DNA of 64,000 nt from an uncultured Candidatus Bathyarchaeia archaeon (GCA_964346975.1 CAYFWV010000028.1:11209-75208); one strand, 5' to 3'; shown: positions 7,223 to 20,585, counted from the stretch's first letter. Numbers and translations: made by a program. Notes: a model not told the origin generated them from the letters alone.

Positions 7223-10200
7223 TTGGTTATTGCAGCCAGTTCCATGGATCTGCGCTTGCTCTCAGTTTCAGCTCAACCTGTCTGGCCTCAGTCGTGGATA
7301 CAAATTGATTGGGACCGAAACGAGAATGGTGAAACTGATGATTGGCGGGACGTTGAAACCGCTCACTATCAATATGACGACGAGTACCTATACTTGAAGC
7401 TTGCATGCTATGGGTCGCCCGGCAGCGATTGGCCTACTCGAGATGCCAGGTACAAATGGTTCATTGATGATAGCGGCTACATGTATTATAGCGGTGGAAA
7501 CGTCTTCGACGCAGAACATCTGCTCTTTGTCGAAGACACAGATCATGACGGTGCCGGCGAAATGTACTTGCTCCATGACATTGACAATGACGATGATTTT
7601 GGGGACTATGAACCCTGGCCCACTGCAGGTTATGCGAGCTATGAAATCACAGACTCGAATGTGGGCGGCTGGAGAATCGTTGCTCCTAATCAGATCGAAA
7701 TGTACTTGGATTGGGCTTCACTCGGAAATCCTCCGGCTTATCAACTATTCTGGTCAACTGACCAACAGAATCCCAATCTCGATCAATCTCCCACAGCGGA
7801 TCGTATGGACGAGGAAGAACCACTACTAATCCACAACGTCGCGGCTACCGGTCAGGTCTCTACACCTTCAACCGTTAGGCAGGGAGAAAACGTGACGATT
7901 CAGATCTCAGTAGAGAACATGGGAACCCAAACAGAAACTTTCAATGTCACGAGCTACTTCAATAGCACAGTTCTCGCTACAAAACTCGTGACAAATCTGG
8001 CAGCAGGACAAAGCACAGTACTCACGTATTATTGGAACACGACAGGCATCCCTGTTGGAGTCTATTCAATAACAGGGTGGGCAGACTCAAGCGCAGCTAT
8101 AACTGAAACCAATGAAGACGATAACTGGTGCACTCAACAAGCTTCTGTGGATATTCAGCCTGCTCCAAAACATGACGTCGCTGCTACCTCTCAAGTTCCA
8201 GCGATGACAAGTGTGGTGCAAGGAACAGTGGTTGACATAAACGTCAGCGTTTCTAATTTGGGAGATTTCGATGAAACCTTCAACGTCACATGTTTCTATG
8301 GTCACAATGTGATAGGAGGGGAAACTGTAGTCGACTTGCCAGCTCAAACAGTTGCCAGCTTGGTTTTCTCGTGGGACACGACAGGTGTTCCATCAAACAC
8401 ATATTACATCCTGGCAATGGCTGATAGTAGCCGAATCATCCCTGAAACTGATGAAGCTAACAATAACTGCACAAGCCTCGAAACTGTGACGGTGTATTCA
8501 CCCGGAGAGGCTGGAAAACTCTTCGTAGATAAAGTCATCAGTGCTGTGGTAAGTGGACACGATCCTCCTGTGGTAGGATTTTCAACAACTTACGAGATGA
8601 CCATAATCGTGAGCAACACTGGAGGGAGCAGCGTCTTCAACATCATAGTCAATGAGACGATTTCAGATGTCTCCTATATTAGTGTAGGCACTCCAAGCCA
8701 GGGCACAATCCTCGCGGTGCCCCCTCCCAGAATAGAGTGGGATGTGGGAATGCTCCCTGTTGGCGGAAGCGCAACACTAACTTTCAGAATAGAAGCCAGT
8801 CCAGACTCCATGACTCCCCTGTATCTCAATCATAAGGAAGATCTCGTTGCTTCAGGAGTCGACTACCTGACCGGTAGCCCCGTGTCAGATACAGCCGACG
8901 AAGACATTATCGTAACCCCCATAATCCGCGACGTGGCTGCGACCAGCCAGATTCCAACGAGCACCCAAGTGCCACAGGGCGATACCATCACAGTACAGGT
9001 CACTGTTGAAAATCTCGGGAACACATCTGAGAGCTTCGATGTGACCTGCTCCTATGATGCCACGATCATCGGCGTCTTGAGAATCTTCAATCTGGGAGCA
9101 GGAAATCAAATCACCGTACCGTTCGCATGGGACACCACAGATGTCCAACCTGGAACCTATTCGATAACTGCAGAAGCTGACTCAAGCAATGAACTTGCTG
9201 AGACCGACGAAACAAACAACATTTGCACTTCACCAACGACTGTGCGGATTCTGATTAACGACATCTCCATAATCAGTCAAGCTCCATCACCCACCACTGT
9301 GACAGAGGGCGAAAACATCACTGTGCAAGCCGTTGTCAAGAATGAAGGAACAGAGCCTGCCTCATTCAATGTGAGTTGCTACAGCAACGAAACCCTGATC
9401 GACAAGCAGTCGGTTGTCAACCTCCAACCGAACATGACAATCACCGTAGAATTCATATGGAATACCACAGGGGTTCCGCATGGAATCTATTTCTTCAACA
9501 CGGTTGCCTCCGTTCTGCAAGATGAGAAAGAGACAGAAGACAATGCCTGCAGAAGCACGACAAGTGCAACCGTGCTTGCAGGGCAACATCAAGTCACGTT
9601 TGACCAGATAGGTGTCTCTTCAGACTTCACGGGTACAGTGGTTACAATTGATGGGGCCGACTACACGGTTGGCAGCTTGCCAATTGGATTCCTGTGGGAT
9701 TCAGGGTCAACTCATAGCTTCACCTTTGAATCACCTCTGATAGTGACTCCAGACGCAAAGCAGTATGCGTGGACAAGTACCACGGGACTGTCCACGTCAC
9801 AGAGTGATTCATTGATAGTGGCTAGCGCAGGCAACGTCACCGGCGTATTCCAGAGCCAATTCTACCTGACCGTCTCCTCTCCATACAGCACAACAGGTGG
9901 GGAAGGCTGGTATGATAGTGATAGCGTAGCATACGCCAGCGTTGACACCGCCCCAGTGGATCATGGAAATGGGACTCGCAGAGTATTCGAGGTCTGGAGT
10001 GACGATGGCTCTGGAACAGAGTATGACCAAAGTAACGGGATTCTAATGGATGAACCAAGAACTGCAACAGCAACCTGGAAGACCCAGTACTTTCTATTAT
10101 TGACGAAGACACTCGGCGGCTTCATCAACCCATCAATATCCGAATGGTGGGATGTCGGAAGTACAGTCACAGTCACAGCCACACCCCAAGTGAACTACTT

Positions 10201-10441
10201 GTTTGACCACTGGGAACTCGACGCCACAAATGTTGGCACCATCAACCCCTACCAAGTGCCTATGACTACAGCTCACACGTTGCATGCCGTGTTCAAACCG
10301 ATAATCACTGGAGGCTCATCAGTTCCGATTGCTGGGTCCAGCCTTGCATGGATCAGTCTCAACATCACTCTGTTTGCAGCCGTGTCTTGCGTGGCATTCT
10401 GCGCAAAAAGGTTCCGAAGATCTGCAGGGGATAGACCGTAA
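7223..10441 (+). CDS. large surface/adhesin-like protein with 4 CARDB-like modules, one DUF11-like module, an InlB-B-repeat-like module and a C-terminal TM anchor
   Basis: 1072 aa ORF. Repeated HDVAATSQ..V.QG..V.I.V.V.N.G...E.FNVT modules. C-terminus LAWISLNITLFAAVSCVAFCAKRFRRS. The true start is probably ATG 7159 in another frame (see findings). Confidence 0.85.
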   Translation: MVIAASSMDLRLLSVSAQPVWPQSWIQIDWDRNENGETDDWRDVETAHYQYDDEYLYLKLACYGSPGSDWPTRDARYKWFIDDSGYMYYSGGNVFDAEHLLFVEDTDHDGAGEMYLLHDIDNDDDFGDYEPWPTAGYASYEITDSNVGGWRIVAPNQIEMYLDWASLGNPPAYQLFWSTDQQNPNLDQSPTADRMDEEEPLLIHNVAATGQVSTPSTVRQGENVTIQISVENMGTQTETFNVTSYFNSTVLATKLVTNLAAGQSTVLTYYWNTTGIPVGVYSITGWADSSAAITETNEDDNWCTQQASVDIQPAPKHDVAATSQVPAMTSVVQGTVVDINVSVSNLGDFDETFNVTCFYGHNVIGGETVVDLPAQTVASLVFSWDTTGVPSNTYYILAMADSSRIIPETDEANNNCTSLETVTVYSPGEAGKLFVDKVISAVVSGHDPPVVGFSTTYEMTIIVSNTGGSSVFNIIVNETISDVSYISVGTPSQGTILAVPPPRIEWDVGMLPVGGSATLTFRIEASPDSMTPLYLNHKEDLVASGVDYLTGSPVSDTADEDIIVTPIIRDVAATSQIPTSTQVPQGDTITVQVTVENLGNTSESFDVTCSYDATIIGVLRIFNLGAGNQITVPFAWDTTDVQPGTYSITAEADSSNELAETDETNNICTSPTTVRILINDISIISQAPSPTTVTEGENITVQAVVKNEGTEPASFNVSCYSNETLIDKQSVVNLQPNMTITVEFIWNTTGVPHGIYFFNTVASVLQDEKETEDNACRSTTSATVLAGQHQVTFDQIGVSSDFTGTVVTIDGADYTVGSLPIGFLWDSGSTHSFTFESPLIVTPDAKQYAWTSTTGLSTSQSDSLIVASAGNVTGVFQSQFYLTVSSPYSTTGGEGWYDSDSVAYASVDTAPVDHGNGTRRVFEVWSDDGSGTEYDQSNGILMDEPRTATATWKTQYFLLLTKTLGGFINPSISEWWDVGSTVTVTATPQVNYLFDHWELDATNVGTINPYQVPMTTAHTLHAVFKPIITGGSSVPIAGSSLAWISLNITLFAAVSCVAFCAKRFRRSAGDRP
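7829..9585 (+). repeat. tandem coding repeats (CARDB-like modules of about 110 aa at ~7829, ~8168, ~8921 and ~9254, with a DUF11-like module between)
   Basis: Recurrent (H/R)DVAAT(S/G)Q..P..V.QG..(V/I)...V.V.N.G...E.F(N/D)VT....N...I in the translation. Confidence 0.6.
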
Positions 10442-12032: not shown

Positions 12033-12212
12033 AGGTTCACCGCGCTCTATCCATCAAATCACACTAGTCAATAACACTTGATCGATTTGTCTCCATTCCA
12101 GCGACAACACCATCTCCGACCCCACAGTCGCGCGTGCATCAGTCCTAGACTCTCCTGACACTCGTTATTTTATCTATGGGTGTCCCCTGTTATTGCACAG
12201 GAAGTGGATCGC

Positions 12213-12734
12213 ATGATCAGGCCAATCCTGCAGCTGGGAAATGACGGTCTCAGAAGGAAATCGGTGCCAGTGACAAGCTTTCCAGACAAGGCTCTTGACA
12301 GCCTAATTGAAGATTTGACTGAAACCCTTCATGAGGCTCAGAAAAAGTTCCACTATGGGCGAGGAATAGCAGCTCCTCAGATCGGTGAATTGAAGCGCGT
12401 GATTGTCATTGATACGGCGAGTATCAGTGATCCTTTGATAAATCCGGAAATCATCTGGCAGTCTGATGAAACGATCCAGGTGTGGGACAGCTGTCTCAGT
12501 TTCAATTTGGCTTTCTTCGTTCTTCTCAACAGGAGTCAGCATATACAATTGAGCTACCAAGATACAAAGGGTAGGCAGCTGAGGCTGGATGCAACAGAAG
12601 ATCTCTCCGAACTCCTACAGCATGAAATCGATCATCTCAACGGGATTCTCGCAGTCGATCGAATGAGAGCGAAGAAGATCATGATGCGCTCAGAATGGGA
12701 GAGAAGGCGACTGGATGCGCGCAAGCGCCATTGA
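12213..12734 (+). CDS. def: peptide deformylase
   Basis: MIRPILQLGNDGLRRKS.., GRGIAAPQIG (motif 1), DSCLSF (motif 2 variant), HEIDHLNG (motif 3). Start at ATG 12213 inside track ORF 12180..12734. Confidence 0.85.
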   Translation: MIRPILQLGNDGLRRKSVPVTSFPDKALDSLIEDLTETLHEAQKKFHYGRGIAAPQIGELKRVIVIDTASISDPLINPEIIWQSDETIQVWDSCLSFNLAFFVLLNRSQHIQLSYQDTKGRQLRLDATEDLSELLQHEIDHLNGILAVDRMRAKKIMMRSEWERRRLDARKRH

Positions 12735-13705: not shown

Positions 13706-14161
13706 GTGAAGAAAGTTTTTGCTTTTACTCTGATGTTAGTGGCGCTCAGCTTATTGATTGTCCCAGCCCAAGCACGCGAAACACCTGTTGTCGTGAAGAG
13801 AGTGAAGAATGTATGTTTCATCTTCGCGAAGGCTGACCATCATGCTAGGAAATTCTCAGTCCACTACGACAATCTCTCACCTAACTCACAAGCGCTGCAT
13901 GCTGAATTCAAGGTGCAAGGAGGATTGGGGTTCACTATAGACACCATCATAATTGAGGGTGGTTCAATGGAGGCTGGCGCAACAGGTGACTACGGAATTA
14001 CCATGAGTTTCAAGATAGAAGTCGATGGCGACAAGATACTAGAGGATAGGATAGTTATTCCGCCACCGCGTGCGCAGGAAAAAATTAGAGGATTTAATGC
14101 TATCTCAAGTGAAAGCTTGAGTCTTCACCGCAAACTCCCTTTTTCATATTCTCATACCTGA
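13706..14161 (+). CDS. small secreted protein (hypothetical)
   Basis: GTG start after GAGGGAGAGAGG. Signal peptide MKKVFAFTLMLVALSLLIVPAQA. 151 aa. Confidence 0.6.
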   Translation: MKKVFAFTLMLVALSLLIVPAQARETPVVVKRVKNVCFIFAKADHHARKFSVHYDNLSPNSQALHAEFKVQGGLGFTIDTIIIEGGSMEAGATGDYGITMSFKIEVDGDKILEDRIVIPPPRAQEKIRGFNAISSESLSLHRKLPFSYSHT

Positions 14162-14402
14162 ATAACATTCTGAGGCGGGCTACGAAATTGGAGACCAAAG
14201 GGTTCACCTACAAGCGATAGCACGAAAAAAAGTGTCTTATCCTGAAGTGGGCCGGGAGAGATTTGAACCAGGACAAATGGAGATTTCACCTGACCTTGCT
14301 TCCTGCACCCTCCCCTTTGTTCTCTCTTGTTTCCCTATGAGAATGGAAACTGGTTCTACAAACCATAATAGGCGGGTATGCCAATTAAGACAAAGAGGGG
14401 AA

Positions 14403-17400
14403 ATGATGAAGCACATTAGTTCAGTCTTGCTTAGATTACTTTTGCCGGTTATTCTCGTACTTACACAACTACTGTTCCCATTGATTTTCATAGCACAGGT
14501 TAGCGCAGACGATCCGTTCACGTTTTCATCTTGGGCGTCAACAACACCTCTAATTGATGGACAACTCAGCCCAGCGAATCCTTGGACCGCAGCCCCAGCG
14601 GAATGGGATGATGCGGACAGGATTGAGTTCTCTCTATCATGGGGTGCTGAAGTTCACAATGCCTCTCTCTACGTTAAGAACGATTACATCAACCTCTATC
14701 TAGCGTTTGTAATTGAGAATGAAGACTACGACTCTGATGATAGGGTAGTGTTTAACTTCGACAACGATGGCGACGGAGTGAAAATGATTGGAGACGACCA
14801 ACTCTGGGTTGATACGACGATTTCTTTTGTTTCGTGGGACCACCGCGCAGGTTATTTTGAAGATGGATTCTTCCCGACTCCTGCTGACGTGGCTTCATTT
14901 GAAAGGGATGTTTTAGATCTTGGTGACCTGGACGGTGTGGGCGCAGTCCAGTTCTCCGGGGCGAGTCCTAGTGAACCAGGTAATTATGTCGTCGAAATAG
15001 CTCATCCACTCGATACACTTGACAGCAGTCACGACTTCAGCCTTGGTGAGGGTCTTGGGCATGGAGCTTCAGTAAGCATGAATGTTGTGTACCTGGAAAA
15101 CGGTAATCCCCTTTCAGGTGATGGGTGGCCTACACTCACATGGGGCGACTGGTCTCAAATGGCTTCTATTACCCTTGCGGATCCTCCTAATCGAGGTCCA
15201 CTAGGCTTCGGAAGAAATCTGAAAATTGATGGAATTGAGATTACTCAAGCTGTACAATACTGGGATGACTTTGGACATGGAGATAACAGTTTATCTCTTG
15301 CTCGTGGAAAAAGCACTATTGTGAGAGTCTTCGTTGATCCAGGTATCTATGGAACAAGAATACATGATGTGACAGCCTACTTGTACGCAACTTCAGCTGC
15401 TGGTGACAGTCTGGCGCATCCTGGAATCTGGACCCCCAACGGACCCCTGTTCGCAGCAGCTAGGATTCAAGCTCCGCTTCCACCAAACTTCTTCACGAGA
15501 GCAAGAGAGGAATACACGATTAACTTCCTGCTTCCAGACTATTGGGTCACCCGTGGAAGCCTGAATCTTGTGGCCTTTGTGAAAGCCACCGATGGAATGA
15601 CTGAAACTCTCTACTCAGACAACTGGATGAGCTGGGTGCCAATCTCATTCACTCCAACAGAATCCTTGAGAATAGGATATTATCTGATTGACTATCGACC
15701 TGACGCTGTAGGTCCAGGTCAGAACATCCCATCAGCTGCCAAGGAAGTGATAGCCCATACGTTCTTTGAGAAGGTCACTCCTATGCCTGATCTGTCAGAT
15801 CCAGTGCAGTTCCTGCTTGCCGGAGCTCCCATTGTATGGGACGGTCCAGATTTCACAAATCCATTTGACGCAGGGAATCAACGTGAACTACTTGAAGACC
15901 TTGAGGAAATGAGGCGTGCGTTGGAAAGGGCGGGCGTATCATACGATCTGATCTGTGGGTTGTATGGCGGAGCAACCCAAGGCACACGCATCGGACAAGT
16001 TCCTAGTATCCCCAGCAGAGTCTTTGTTGCTCATGAGGATCGACCGTGGAGCTTCGCTCACGAGATCGGCCACAATTACGGGCTTTACCATAGTTGGGAT
16101 GAACGAAGCGGTAATCCATATCTGGGCCATCCAGATAGAGAGAACTCGAGCCAAACATTCGGCTATGATACACAACAAAACTGGTTTATCAACGTGGGTT
16201 ATCCTTCAGAACCTGGGGATGTTGCGAAGTCTCCACTGCATCTTTTTGAAGGCCAATATGGCAACCTGATGAGTTATGAGAATCAATACCGATGGATTGA
16301 CCCTTATGAATGGGAAGAACTTATGGAAGTTTTTGATCCTCCAGTTGCAGCGCTGCAAACCTTACCTTCTAGCAATATCCAGAGTTCCTCTCCTGGCCTT
16401 CAAGTTTCGGGCAGAATCTACAAGAATAACACAGGCAGTTTGCGTCCAGTTTTCCAAATACCCTCCATCCTGAACATCAGCGTCCCCAGTGGTCCATATA
16501 CTGTTGAGCTCAGAGGGGCTCCTCCTGGAGAGGAGGTGTTGTACAGCCAAAGCTTTGATGTCCAATTTGATACCGATGCTTGGGAAGGTGTTCCATTCTC
16601 CGACACGGCTTTCTTCATGCTAGATCTACCATTTATGACTGGTACATACAGCGTATCCCTCTGGAACACCAGCATATCCCCCGCCGTGTTACTCGACAAG
16701 ATCACAGCTAGTGCCAACGCCCCTCAAGCAACGATAACCTATCCAAACGGTGGAGAAAACGTTGGAGACTCGTTCAATGCTACTTGGACCGCTTTTGACC
16801 CTGATGGTGATCCCTTAACCTTCAAACTGTCTTATAGTAGTGATAATGGTGCGACGTGGAGACCATTATCTCCGCGTATATATGGGACAGGTTACCTTGT
16901 GGACGGTTCAGCGCTTCCAGGCAGTTCAGAAACTTTGATTCGAGTTGAGGTCTCAGATGGGATCTACATGAGTGAGGATCAATCTGATGCAGTCTTCGAC
17001 GTGCCTTTCAAAGGGCCGCGATCCGCGATTGGTATCGGAGTAGGACCCAGTAACACGTACAATTTTGGTGAGCCAATTATCTTCAAGGGGTCAGCCTTTG
17101 ACCTTGAGGATGGTGCGCTTTCGAATTCATCTCTCACCTGGACCTCGGACATTGATGGTTTCTTAGGAACGGGCAGAGTATTCACCACAACTGATTTGAC
17201 GCCAGGGATACATAGTATTACGTTGACAGCTCTGATAGTGATAATAACAATTCCTCGTATTCATTTGATGTAACTGTGGAGATTCATGATGTTGCTGTGA
17301 TTGATGTTTCTCCAGCGAAAACGATAGTTGGTGAAGGGCATGATCTCTCTTTCAATATGACACTTGAGAATCAAGGGCTCTCATCGGAGATTTTCAACGT

Positions 17401-18127
17401 CACCCTATCACTCTACGAGATTAATGCTACCTCTGTCAACGTAGAACTATATGGGCTGGCAACAGCTGGGTGGGGAGCCAACCCGAACAATATTACAAGC
17501 CCAGGACCAACCATAATGGTCAATCAGTGGGATCACATCAAGCTGACCTTACACAGCGCAGATTCGCTCACACACAACTTCTTCGTTGACTATAATGGAG
17601 ATCAAACTCCTACAGCTGGTGAACCTACATCTCCTGATTTCACGTCAATCATTGAATACGACTTTGTAGCGGACACTGTTGGCACATTTTTGTACTATTG
17701 CCATTTCCATGGCTCGGTAATGTTTGGCACCCTCATAGTGCAGGAACCATCCATACTATCATACTATCAGGAAAGCATCCCTAATGAGGAGCATTTGGAT
17801 GCTGGAGAGAGGCGTTCAAGTGTCCGTCCCCACACTTGTCTCGGAAAAGGCTACTATATCTTCGCTGCTGCTGCAGGTCCTGTCCCTAATGAAATCGAGA
17901 CAGTAGACAATACCTTCATTGTTGGACAGATAATCTTCATCACCATCCCAGGTGATGTTGATGGAGACCGCGATGTAGACATTTTTGACATCGTAGCTAT
18001 GGCCACAATCTATGGTGTTGTCGAACCTGATCCATCCTATGATCCCAACTGTGACATCGATGGCGACGGTGACGTGGACATCTTCGACATCGTGGCCGCA
18101 GCTAGCCACTATGGGGAAAGCTGGTAG
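14403..18127 (+). pseudogene. secreted metzincin-type Zn metalloprotease with Asp-box/PKD-like, CARDB-like, cupredoxin and dockerin modules; reading frame broken at ~17229-17234 (or an indel error)
   Basis: Track ORFs 14232..17273 and 17276..18127. Signal peptide MMKHISSVLLRLLLPVILVL..AQVSA from ATG 14403. HEIGHNYGLYH at 16059-16091. YSSDNGATW Asp-box. H..YYCHFHGSVM type-1 Cu ligand pattern. Two DxDGDxDVDIFDIV dockerin segments. The PKD-like strand ..GIHSITLTA|DSDNNNSSYSFDVTVEIHDVAV continues across the frame change. Confidence 0.8.
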
Positions 18128-18178
18128 CGCGTGCGTGATGGTTCAGGAGCTGGAAGTGTGGAAGGGGGGCATCTGCAG

Positions 18179-18889
18179 ATGTTCAAGGTGCTTGTCCTCT
18201 TCGTGATTGTAGCGACAGCAGTTCTGCATGAACCCGGAGCATGTTCTCCCCTCGAATGTGTCATTCCCGTCGTCTATCGATCTCAGGAAACTGGCTACTA
18301 TTGTGGTCCTGCAGCTGTTCAGATGGCCCTTGGTCATGTTGTAGTTGCTGCGCCAAGCCAGGACATGTTGGCATCGGAAATGGAAACAGATCCAGTGGAA
18401 GGCGCCACATATACCGATATGATGCGTGTACCCTTTGAGACGCGGAATCTCCCGGATGTCTACGAGGGAACCTTGGAACTGGAGGATTTGCAGGAGGCAA
18501 CAGATCATGGTTTCCTGACCATCATCCTCATCTATTTTAGCACTGCACTGATGTATCAACACTATGTGCTTGTCATCGGCTACAATGCCAGCGGAATCTA
18601 CGTACATGATCCATGGCCCCTAAATGCGAGTCAACCTGCAGGCCGATCCACGGGAGCCAACGCGTTCATCTCGACTGATCTGCTAGCCGATCTGTGGGCC
18701 TGTGATCCTGCCCACTGGGGACTTGTCATACCGTATTCAACCACGCCTGGAGAAGGACCATCATGGTGGCAGCAGTACTGGTTTCTCCTGATCGCCGTTC
18801 CTGTTTCCATAGCAGCGGTTGCCACAATAATCCTGGTGAAAAGGAAGACATCCACAACTGAGAACTCGAATATATCCAAGGCAATCTAG
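18179..18889 (+). CDS. C39-like (papain-fold) cysteine peptidase with a C-terminal TM anchor
   Basis: SQETGYYCGPAAVQMAL (Cys), HYVLVIGY (His), VHDPW (Asp). ATG 18179 after GGAAGGGGGG. C-terminus WFLLIAVPVSIAAVATIILVKRK. Confidence 0.7.
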   Translation: MFKVLVLFVIVATAVLHEPGACSPLECVIPVVYRSQETGYYCGPAAVQMALGHVVVAAPSQDMLASEMETDPVEGATYTDMMRVPFETRNLPDVYEGTLELEDLQEATDHGFLTIILIYFSTALMYQHYVLVIGYNASGIYVHDPWPLNASQPAGRSTGANAFISTDLLADLWACDPAHWGLVIPYSTTPGEGPSWWQQYWFLLIAVPVSIAAVATIILVKRKTSTTENSNISKAI

Positions 18890-20495: not shown

Positions 20496-20585
20496 ATACG
20501 ATACAACTGTGACATCGACGCGGACGGGGACGTCGACATCTTTGACATAGTACTAGCTGCCAGCCACTACGGAGAAAACCGGTAG
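20496..20585 (+). pseudogene. relic 3' end of a dockerin-encoding gene
   Basis: My translation is ..YNCDIDADGDVDIFDIVLAASHYGENR*, compared with DPNCDIDGDGDVDIFDIVAAASHYGESW* at 18040-18127. A stop lies 1 codon upstream at 20490-20492. GDVDAEIYD lies in another frame just before. Confidence 0.5.

Follow-up and report, generated by a model that had tools for sequence, protein, structure and literature searches.

Within a stretch of 64,000 nucleotides from an uncultured Candidatus Bathyarchaeia archaeon (GCA_964346975.1 CAYFWV010000028.1:11209-75208, contig C28; hereafter the window, with positions counted from its first letter), positions 14403-18127 carry what is probably one gene for a surface-tethered metzincin protease with an exchanged cassette tail, recently broken by the loss of a single base. 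The source is a metagenome-assembled genome (MAG) of 1.54 Mb in 81 contigs, 86.7% complete, and every named relative of the proteins under study is entered as 'Candidatus Bathyarchaeota/Bathyarchaeia archaeon'. The original prediction, made from the sequence alone, had taken two open reading frames (ORFs) in this region for one gene with a 1-nt length defect, and both the claim and its coordinates were borne out by homologues that run in one frame and by a DNA alignment with one gap.

Two reading frames and a missing base

The two frames and the break between them are as follows.

14403-17273, + strand: upstream frame (ORF-A), signal peptide through most of the PKD-like domain; ATG 14403, TAA 17271-17273
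17229-17236, + strand: break, GCT, CT, GAT; one base absent from the codon after Ala, where homologues have Thr or Ser
17231-18127, + strand: downstream frame, end of the PKD-like domain, CARDB with nested cupredoxin, dockerin; stop TGA 18125-18127

The longest version of ORF-A starts at GTG 14232 (14232-17273, 1013 aa), and its true start is likely ATG 14403; a Shine-Dalgarno (SD)-like GAGGGG lies 5 nt before this codon and a hydrophobic leader follows it. The downstream frame (frame C) is open from 17216 to the TGA at 18125-18127; as listed, ORF-B occupies 17276-18127 of it, with a GTG start and 283 aa. Frame A is homologous to related proteins up to ..GIHSITLTA, which ends at GCT 17229-17231, and frame C takes over the homology from (S)DSDNNNSSYSFDVTVEIHDVAV, which begins at GAT 17234-17236. 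Past the break, frame A adds 13 out-of-frame codons of unrelated sequence (LIVIITIPRIHLM) and then TAA.

Ten homologous proteins (P0001-P0010, 758-1482 aa, with 34-80% identity over 96-100% of ORF-A) were collected, and a family of 11 sequences was used for domain assignment and alignment. All ten span the junction in a single frame, with the consensus ..H[N/S]ITLTA[T/S]DS[D/H]GNN..VTVE[L]HD[V/I]AV... When the window was aligned at the nucleotide level with four intact homologue loci, a single gap base was placed in the window directly after GCT 17229-17231 (GCx-ACx-GAC in the homologues, GCT-.CT-GAT in the window). The intact homologues are single ORFs of 1112-1482 aa, and in the genomes of two relatives the frames run unbroken for 1209 and 1334 aa, so the orthologues are not pairs of separate genes. 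No second copy of the gene was found in the assembly. On these comparisons, the upstream and downstream frames are one gene from which one base is missing.

We are fairly confident that the deletion is real rather than an assembler artefact, because the same sequence is found in two other assemblies, its context (GCT CT GAT) contains no homopolymer and the genome has no pattern of frame errors. A 1999-base Logan contig (ERR2564001_599337, run ERR2564001) is identical to window positions 16494-18492, across the break, and encodes the exact 283-aa product. Similarly, the metagenome contig JABAOH010056413.1 is identical to positions 16003-17677, with no extra base at the break. The ends of the contigs differ among the records carrying the deletion form. 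A pattern scan in which the base was optional returned JABAOH010056413.1 as its sole match in the metagenome collection, from which the extra-base form was absent, and the same pattern had no match in the genome collection. ORFs of at least 100 aa cover 85% of the genome, with a mean of 295 aa, and give no sign of widespread frame errors, and the neighbouring genes (PEPCK, PhzF-like, deformylase and methyltransferase) fit their Pfam models end to end. A literature search found no paper naming run ERR2564001.

These records also bear on the alternative that the organism itself has an intact gene and that the base is lacking through an error of sequencing or assembly or through the consensus of a low-coverage spot. 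Three separately assembled records with different ends share the sequence, which argues against such an error, as do the non-homopolymeric context, the general soundness of the frames in this genome and the failure to find the extra-base form in the collections scanned. However, the three records are 100% identical and may come from the same sample or reads, which leaves room for a systematic error or an intact minority allele, and the genome is a MAG assembled in 81 pieces. Besides, the 298 codons downstream hold no further lesion and keep all copper and calcium ligands, and a frame so perfectly kept also suits an intact gene. Taken together, we regard an intact gene as unlikely.

A full-length protein could also be restored from the broken gene by programmed -1 ribosomal frameshifting or by transcriptional slippage, reading TLTA-S-DSD. 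A -1 shift at GCT gives TCT (Ser), the residue that P0003 has at this position, and the downstream frame is fully kept; programmed -1 frameshifting occurs in archaea, for example in Sulfolobus fucA1. However, all homologues are written in one frame, so that a recoding site would not be conserved, and neither an X_XXY_YYZ slippery heptamer nor a homopolymer run was found in the overlap at 17216-17270, which makes recoding very improbable. Just as improbable is a chimeric assembly, in which genes from two populations, one for a protease and the other for a cupredoxin-dockerin protein, had been joined at the conserved PKD/CARDB boundary, giving rise to both the mosaic and the frame break. The nearest relatives do differ module by module and the junction region is conserved in many genes, but P0009, on an independent Joint Genome Institute (JGI) contig, has the same order of protease, PKD, CARDB with cupredoxin and dockerin in one frame, the two other assemblies pass the junction unbranched, the guanine-plus-cytosine content is flat across it, and joining at a shared word would not delete a base. 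Two genuine genes, a protease and a stand-alone cupredoxin-dockerin protein from GTG 17276, are scarcely credible: stand-alone cassette proteins of ~310 aa exist (P0018, P0020, P0022 and P0024) and the 283-aa ORF has been entered in a gene catalogue as a protein (P0015), but the former have their own signal peptides while ORF-B starts in mid-domain with neither a signal peptide nor an SD-like sequence, same-frame homology extends upstream of its GTG into the last PKD strand, and ORF-A terminates inside a domain after 13 unrelated residues.

The cupredoxin-dockerin tail

The part of the gene cut off by the break encodes a tail with the following features.

17279-17428, + strand: CARDB-like sandwich, N-terminal half; strands A-C (HDVAVIDV.., LSFNMTLENQG, FNVTLSLYE)
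17432-17746, + strand: cupredoxin with type-1 copper ligand set; from Foldseek, PDB profile search and Pfam matches of relatives
17750-17944, + strand: CARDB-like sandwich, C-terminal half; from alignment and model strands 174-238
17948-18124, + strand: dockerin, two segments of calcium loop plus helix, GDVDGDRDVDIFDIV.. and CDIDGDGDVDIFDIV..; from profile and model helices 251-259 and 284-291

AlphaFold models were made separately for the 298-aa downstream frame and for the 943-aa protease part. The model of the downstream frame has a predicted local distance difference test score (pLDDT) of 91 and shows four strands (residues 21-65), eight strands (68-171), five strands (174-238) and the two dockerin helices in this order. 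Four homologues (P0003, P0007, P0008 and P0010) that have no middle block align on both of its sides, as an ordinary CARDB domain followed by a dockerin. For this reason the cupredoxin does not form a domain of its own along the chain but is an insertion of ~105 residues in one of the loops of the CARDB-like sandwich, and the original prediction, which had placed it after a CARDB-like stretch, has to be corrected on this point. CARDB (PF07705) has no match on the gene's own sequence even when the insert is cut out and the halves are joined in silico, and is present in relatives with the same cassette.

The copper ligand set that the original prediction had recognised consists of H115 (17573-17575), C157 (17699-17701), H160 (17708-17710) and M164 (17720-17722), within THNFF (17570-17584) and YYCHFHGSVM (17693-17722). 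The ligand loop, C-x2-H-x3-M, is short, as in amicyanin and plastocyanin, and the H-N motif after the first ligand is kept. The region 17440-17750, which had been singled out for structure prediction, was modelled within the pLDDT 91 tail, and Foldseek found in it the cupredoxin fold, with matches to two-domain laccases, a Nitrosopumilus multicopper oxidase and nitrite reductases (probability 1.0, E-value about 1e-6). Searched against the PDB, an insert profile built from 12 module sequences reached the type-1 domain of a copper nitrite reductase (2dv6_A) at 2.4e-12, and the four residues of the window align with the ligands of 2dv6_A and 2vmj_A. In the alignment of the 12 modules the corresponding positions (H48, C90, H93 and M97) are invariant. 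Relatives pass the cut-offs for PF07732 (Cu-oxidase_3), PF00127 (Copper-bind) or PF13473 (Cupredoxin_1), and there is an NCBIfam Cu_nitrite_red match at 8.3e-5. In this way, the assignment is supported by the family profile and by the fold, while single-sequence Pfam matches are only marginal.

Such a conserved ligand set argues for a copper site, and we infer copper binding from it. The alternative is a cupredoxin-fold insert that binds no redox copper and is carried along with the dockerin as a structural, spacer or adhesive Ig-like module. All four ligands are kept in 14 of 17 relatives (the other three have N or D at the second His), as are the H-N motif and the short amicyanin-like loop, and this, with the invariance among the 12 modules and a multicopper-oxidase-like ORF elsewhere in the genome, speaks against a module without copper. 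In favour of it, several relatives have N, D, E or Y for the second His, neither a further cupredoxin of this type nor a Copper-bind match was found in the genome, the cassette sits on functionally unrelated heads, and Bathyarchaeia, the host class, are mainly anaerobic. A copper-free insert is a possibility to be taken seriously, if a doubtful one, and on many heads the cupredoxin may be a passenger, given the variants that have lost a ligand and the promiscuity of the cassette. In P0019, P0020, P0023, P0026, P0031, P0172, P0174 and P0175 the second ligand His is replaced by D, E, Y or N and Cys and Met are retained; such proteins may have a different kind of copper site or a degenerate one. 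The multicopper-oxidase-like ORF (G000:C53:843-1301, + strand, a 453-aa frame; Cu-oxidase_2, 35 bits) is the sole other protein of a copper-redox type seen in the genome, in which no plastocyanin-family match was found.

An exhaustive HMMER search with the tail gave 7102 matches at E-value <1e-3, mostly to the dockerin alone. The whole cassette in one stretch was found in ~27 cluster representatives at 50% identity, in several settings: by itself in proteins of ~310 aa that have a signal peptide, joined to a cohesin in adaptors of ~465 aa, together with an extra cupredoxin (named 'plastocyanin' by JGI), in an FG-GAP/LamG protein and, in seven of ten larger cassette proteins scanned, with a NosD-like beta-helix. 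The same cupredoxin also occurs directly before a dockerin, or as tandem pairs with a C-terminal membrane anchor. Such tandem pairs, with a C-terminal transmembrane anchor and without CARDB or dockerin, were seen in P0036, P0042, P0044, P0050, P0057 and P0081, and may be the ancestral form of the module. Only the window and P0009 were found to combine a protease head with the cassette. The architecture called unusual in the original prediction is therefore rare as far as the protease fusion goes, while the tail of CARDB with nested cupredoxin and dockerin is a common cassette in Bathyarchaeia. Of 301 genomes sampled across the class, 22 have the cupredoxin module; one family accounts for 19 (of its 43 genomes), and in the window's own family one of six other genomes has it. 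The protease gene was found in two of the 24 genomes from the window's family.

The nearest relative changes from one module to the next, which justifies the word mosaic used in the original prediction. The catalytic domain is closest to P0005 (85%), whose tail is of another type, the PKD-like domain to P0003 (82%), the cupredoxin to P0009 (66%), whose dockerin is only 41% identical, and the dockerin to P0010 and P0016 (78%). Because the nearest relatives differ module by module, the protease probably gained its cassette through module exchange, as far as sequence comparison can tell. On locus L026, P0009 (5059-8709) is directly adjoined by a phage-integrase-family gene (8773-9213, - strand); this neighbour and the patchy distribution hint at mobility. 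On locus L027 (1-1368), P0016 consists of a PKD-CARDB[cupredoxin]-dockerin tail, 54% identical to that of the window, without a protease body. It may be another remnant or an artefact of the contig end; considered as a second broken copy it proved uninformative, its upstream sequence being AT-rich and filled with stops and not a shifted protease frame.

The two dockerin segments, GDVDGDRDVDIFDIVAMATIYG (17951-17995) and CDIDGDGDVDIFDIVAAASHYG (18050-18094), are both intact. Dockerin_1 (PF00404) scored 24.6 bits in a six-frame scan of the genome and 20.5 bits in hmmscan; the Pfam cut-offs were 22.9 bits for this model, 21 for Cu-oxidase_3, 20.6 for Peptidase_M66 and 22 for Reprolysin_4. A profile of the dockerin family reached a solved dockerin in the PDB (2y3n_B) at 1.6e-13, and together with the two model helices this supports the two-segment dockerin proposed before. 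About 25 ORFs of the genome have a dockerin of this type, only one of which also has a cupredoxin.

The original prediction rightly saw no cohesin in the window. The lone weak Cohesin match (8945-9190), which does not reach an E-value of 0.01, falls on the CARDB repeats of the ORF at 7223-10441. This ORF (+ strand) encodes a secreted protein of 1072 aa that has a Flg_new_2 domain besides at least four CARDB repeats (163.8 bits), and a hydrophobic anchor at its C-terminus.

The proposed search of the whole genome for cohesins found about 10 cohesin ORFs (ten with a custom profile, which was partly built with sequences of this same genome). Cohesins supported by PF00963 scored 24.4, 27.1 and 30.7 bits. 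On contig C54 a cohesin occurs in a secreted protein of 168 aa and in a protein of the order cohesin, two CARDB, dockerin; contig C10 encodes a cohesin-dockerin protein, and contig C67 another such protein. Four of the ten custom-profile ORFs end with a hydrophobic segment and a basic tail. They are listed here as candidate cohesin anchors, each predicted to be secreted; the cohesin-like module, matched by the custom profile at 1e-11 to 1e-25, is N-terminal in all four.

C13:5050-7890: candidate cohesin anchor
C57:15221-17296: candidate cohesin anchor
C13:8615-10048, - strand: candidate cohesin anchor
C23:9434-10882: candidate cohesin anchor

These four C-terminally anchored proteins are candidates for the surface anchors of the ~25 dockerin proteins. 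Dockerin-mediated assembly of the protease onto a cohesin is plausible, because the genome encodes cohesins and some of them are probably membrane-anchored.

The protease body and neighbouring loci

The features of the protease body, all encoded by ORF-A except the end of the PKD-like domain, are as follows.

14403-14507, + strand: Sec-type signal peptide, MMKHISSVLLRLLLPVILVLTQLLFPLIFIAQVSA; read from the sequence, with a putative cleavage site
14520-15188, + strand: CBM9-like / DOMON-like beta-sandwich; from Foldseek and Pfam matches of relatives
15210-15716, + strand: beta-rich pre-catalytic domain (IEITQAVQ..GKSTIVRVFVD..); conserved in the 11-sequence alignment, model strands of pLDDT 50-80
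15720-16367, + strand: metzincin-type zinc metalloprotease, closest to M66 (StcE-like); from Pfam, the StcE match and invariant residues
16059-16091, + strand: zinc site HEIGHNYGLYH (HExxHxxGxxH); from a motif check
16269-16271, + strand: candidate Met-turn methionine M623 (..YGNLMSY..), 60 residues past the third His
16380-16712, + strand: beta-sandwich after the catalytic domain; strands of pLDDT 60-88, conserved in the family
16716-17006, + strand: Ig-like (Big_7-type) domain with one Asp-box; from Pfam matches of relatives, the motif read from the sequence
17040-17278, + strand: PKD-like domain, truncated by the frame break ahead of its last strand or strands

The signal peptide was modelled as an N-terminal helix (residues 7-24), and the homologues begin with similar hydrophobic leaders. 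The N-terminal beta-rich region of the original prediction was confirmed and could be refined to a CBM9-like or DOMON-like beta-sandwich by Foldseek, which matched it to CBM9 7nwo (TM-score, that is template modelling score, 0.63; probability 1.0), to NxrC (7b04_C) and to the gamma subunit of ethylbenzene dehydrogenase (2ivf_C). Pfam CBM9_1 matches two of the 11 family members, at 3.3e-5.

The zinc site had been located correctly at 16059-16091. H553, E554, H557, H563 and M623 are invariant in the 11-sequence alignment, and the window's own sequence scores above the cut-offs for Peptidase_M66 (PF10462, 22.3 bits) and Reprolysin_4 (PF13583, 22.8 bits) around this site. When the zinc-site region was searched against the PDB as a single sequence, the closest solved protease was StcE (3ujz_A, E-value 8e-5), with an alignment of 57 residues extending well past the motif; the protease family profile reached only adamalysins there, at E-values of 0.1-0.6. 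Used as a Foldseek query, the protease-part model gave a usable match only for the CBM9-like domain and none for the catalytic domain. The catalytic domain is thus predicted to be an StcE/M66-like metzincin, with a putative protease activity and substrate, and M623 would be its Met-turn methionine, in a part of the model with a pLDDT below 50.

The Asp-box, YSSDNGATW (16833-16859), of which SSDNGATW (16836-16859) is the S-x-D-x-G-x-T-W part, is a single motif in an Ig-like domain and not part of a sialidase propeller. Big_7 matches five of the 11 family members and BNR one; the window itself reaches only E-values of 0.078 and 0.14, the BNR model being 12 residues long. PKD matches three of the 11 members, and the family profile reaches the PKD domains of collagenases at E-values of 0.011-0.017. 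In this way, the Asp-box, PKD and CARDB parts of the original prediction stood through family members, alignment and model, and not through a significant Pfam match on the gene's own sequence. We use the names PKD-like and CARDB-like because the Pfam matches are found in relatives and not in the gene itself.

Directly downstream of the gene, 18131-18889 (+ strand) encodes a Peptidase_C39_2-like protein (8e-12) with a C-terminal transmembrane segment. Neither this ORF nor the small secreted ORF at 13706-14161 lies beside the homologues on L025 or L026, which gives no sign of a conserved operon. Some 2.4 kb downstream, 82 bases (20504-20585) with 79% identity to 18046-18127 are the relic of a dockerin gene end. 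The relic encodes CDIDADGDVDIFDIVLAASHYGEN; its first dockerin segment (VGDVDAEIYD) lies in a different frame, and stops occur upstream. It shows that such genes decay at this locus. Additionally, 12180-12734 (+ strand) gives a full-length match to peptide deformylase (Pep_deformylase, 1.5e-39, profile positions 1-154 of 156) in an archaeal genome.

Proposed function and related systems

Besides the points in favour of an intact gene given above, several observations weigh against the reading of a tethered, cassette-bearing and broken metzincin. The M66 and Reprolysin scores are marginal and span only ~50 of 306 profile positions, and the model of the protease part is poor (943 aa, pLDDT 62; <50 over residues 562-634, around the Met-turn). 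On the gene's own sequence there is no significant match to Pfam PKD (PF00801, PF18911), CARDB or BNR, Cu-oxidase_3 reaches 17.3-20.5 bits, which is below the cut-off, and the Dockerin score is marginal. Relatives with N, D, E or Y at the second His indicate that copper binding is not universal in the cassette. Finally, Pfam on three of the candidate anchor cohesins (the protein on C57 not among them) gave 18.3 bits, 16.2 bits and no match, all sub-threshold.

We still consider the reading of one surface-tethered metzincin gene, broken by one base, to be the probable one. The intact product, of ~1,240 aa, would be a Sec-exported StcE/M66-like protease with the order signal peptide, CBM9-like domain, beta domain, metzincin, Ig-like domains (one with an Asp-box), PKD-like domain, CARDB with nested cupredoxin, and dockerin. 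Its C-terminal dockerin would plug into a cohesin encoded by the genome and hold the protease on the cell surface, so that peptides would be released beside the cell. The tail is a preassembled unit in which a type-1-copper cupredoxin occupies one loop of a CARDB-like Ig sandwich and a dockerin follows; the protease most likely received this cassette by module exchange. The base missing after GCT 17229-17231 would then have been deleted towards the end of the PKD-like domain, and translation would now stop 13 codons on, at TAA 17271-17273. The truncated product would keep the signal peptide and the catalytic domain and lose the end of the PKD-like domain, the CARDB/cupredoxin part and the dockerin, and would be at most a free, C-terminally ragged protease. 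The downstream frame is probably silent, because it has neither a signal peptide nor a ribosome-binding site, and the gene in this genome is probably non-functional. As nothing else is damaged in the 894 downstream bases, the lesion would be recent or a population variant. The data show the break, the homology, the domain folds except for the catalytic one, the ligand set, the cohesins of the genome and the spread of the cassette; export, the choice of the cohesin partner, the activity and substrate of the protease and the recency of the lesion are what we infer from them. The gene itself clearly illustrates how modules are shuffled between secreted proteins of archaea, with what seems to be recent decay afterwards.

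A wider reading is that type-1 copper electron-transfer modules are displayed on the cell surface of Bathyarchaeia via a cohesin-dockerin network, as a plug-in extracellular redox relay; this is a rather doubtful conjecture. It would include the cohesin-CARDB[cupredoxin]-dockerin adaptors and the tandem cupredoxins with dockerins, and if true would be a copper counterpart of the conduits of multihaem cytochromes. The cassette on hydrolases and NosD-like beta-helix proteins could mean redox chemistry coupled to polymer attack, or mere free exchange. If the modules bind copper, uncultured archaea of sediment and soil, for which anaerobic fermentation or acetogenesis is the usual picture, would hold redox copper centres on a modular scaffold outside their cells. 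This would be relevant both to extracellular electron transfer and to the oxidative attack of lignin or humic matter.

Among known systems, the protease resembles M66 (StcE of E. coli O157:H7, PDB 3UJZ, PF10462) in its zinc site, which agrees almost letter for letter (HEIGHNYGLYH, compared with H[E/D]VGHNYGLGH in StcE/M66), in the 57-residue homology around it and the conserved Met downstream, and in being large and secreted with Ig-like accessory domains. It differs in that the similarity amounts to only 22-26 bits and the catalytic fold is unconfirmed, the model being poor, and in being archaeal, with an accessory set of CBM9-like, Big_7, PKD, CARDB, cupredoxin and dockerin domains.

The cupredoxin shares fold, ligand set and H-N motif with amicyanin, plastocyanin, nitrosocyanin and the N-terminal cupredoxin of Hyphomicrobium denitrificans nitrite reductase (2DV6). 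In contrast to these, it sits in a loop of another Ig-like (CARDB) domain and would be tethered by a dockerin, whereas they are soluble, anchored through a lipid or in the membrane, or built into an oxidoreductase; the window's copy, with Pfam scores just under the cut-off, is known here from sequence and model.

Bathyarchaeota (Miscellaneous Crenarchaeotal Group, MCG) are reportedly proposed to degrade detrital proteins with extracellular peptidases, mainly cysteine peptidases (clostripain and gingipain-like). The window gene likewise encodes a secreted protease of the same archaeal class, and extracellular protein harvesting is plausible for it, but it is a metzincin with a dockerin tether, and is broken in this genome.

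Non-cellulosomal cohesin-dockerin systems are documented in archaea, namely in Archaeoglobus fulgidus and the anaerobic methanotrophs ANME-1 and ANME-2 (Chadwick et al., 2022, PMC9012536; Timmers et al., 2017, PMC5244752; with Peer 2009 and Bayer 1999 cited there). As in those systems, a C-terminal dockerin of two segments sits on secreted proteins other than carbohydrate-active ones, and the same genome encodes small cohesin proteins, cohesin-plus-dockerin adaptors and CARDB spacers. The cargo reported in those systems consists of substrate-binding, S-layer and scaffoldin-like proteins (PMC9012536, PMC5244752). The searchable literature yielded neither a cupredoxin nor an M66-like protease as archaeal dockerin cargo, no paper on cupredoxin with dockerin in archaea, and no description of the CARDB[cupredoxin] cassette. 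Dockerin-tagged proteins are known from archaea, and the cassette, with at least 27 clusters at 50% identity, is a recurrent cargo. Each of the ingredients is known; what is new is the nested CARDB[cupredoxin] domain and its pairing with a dockerin as a recurrent cassette.

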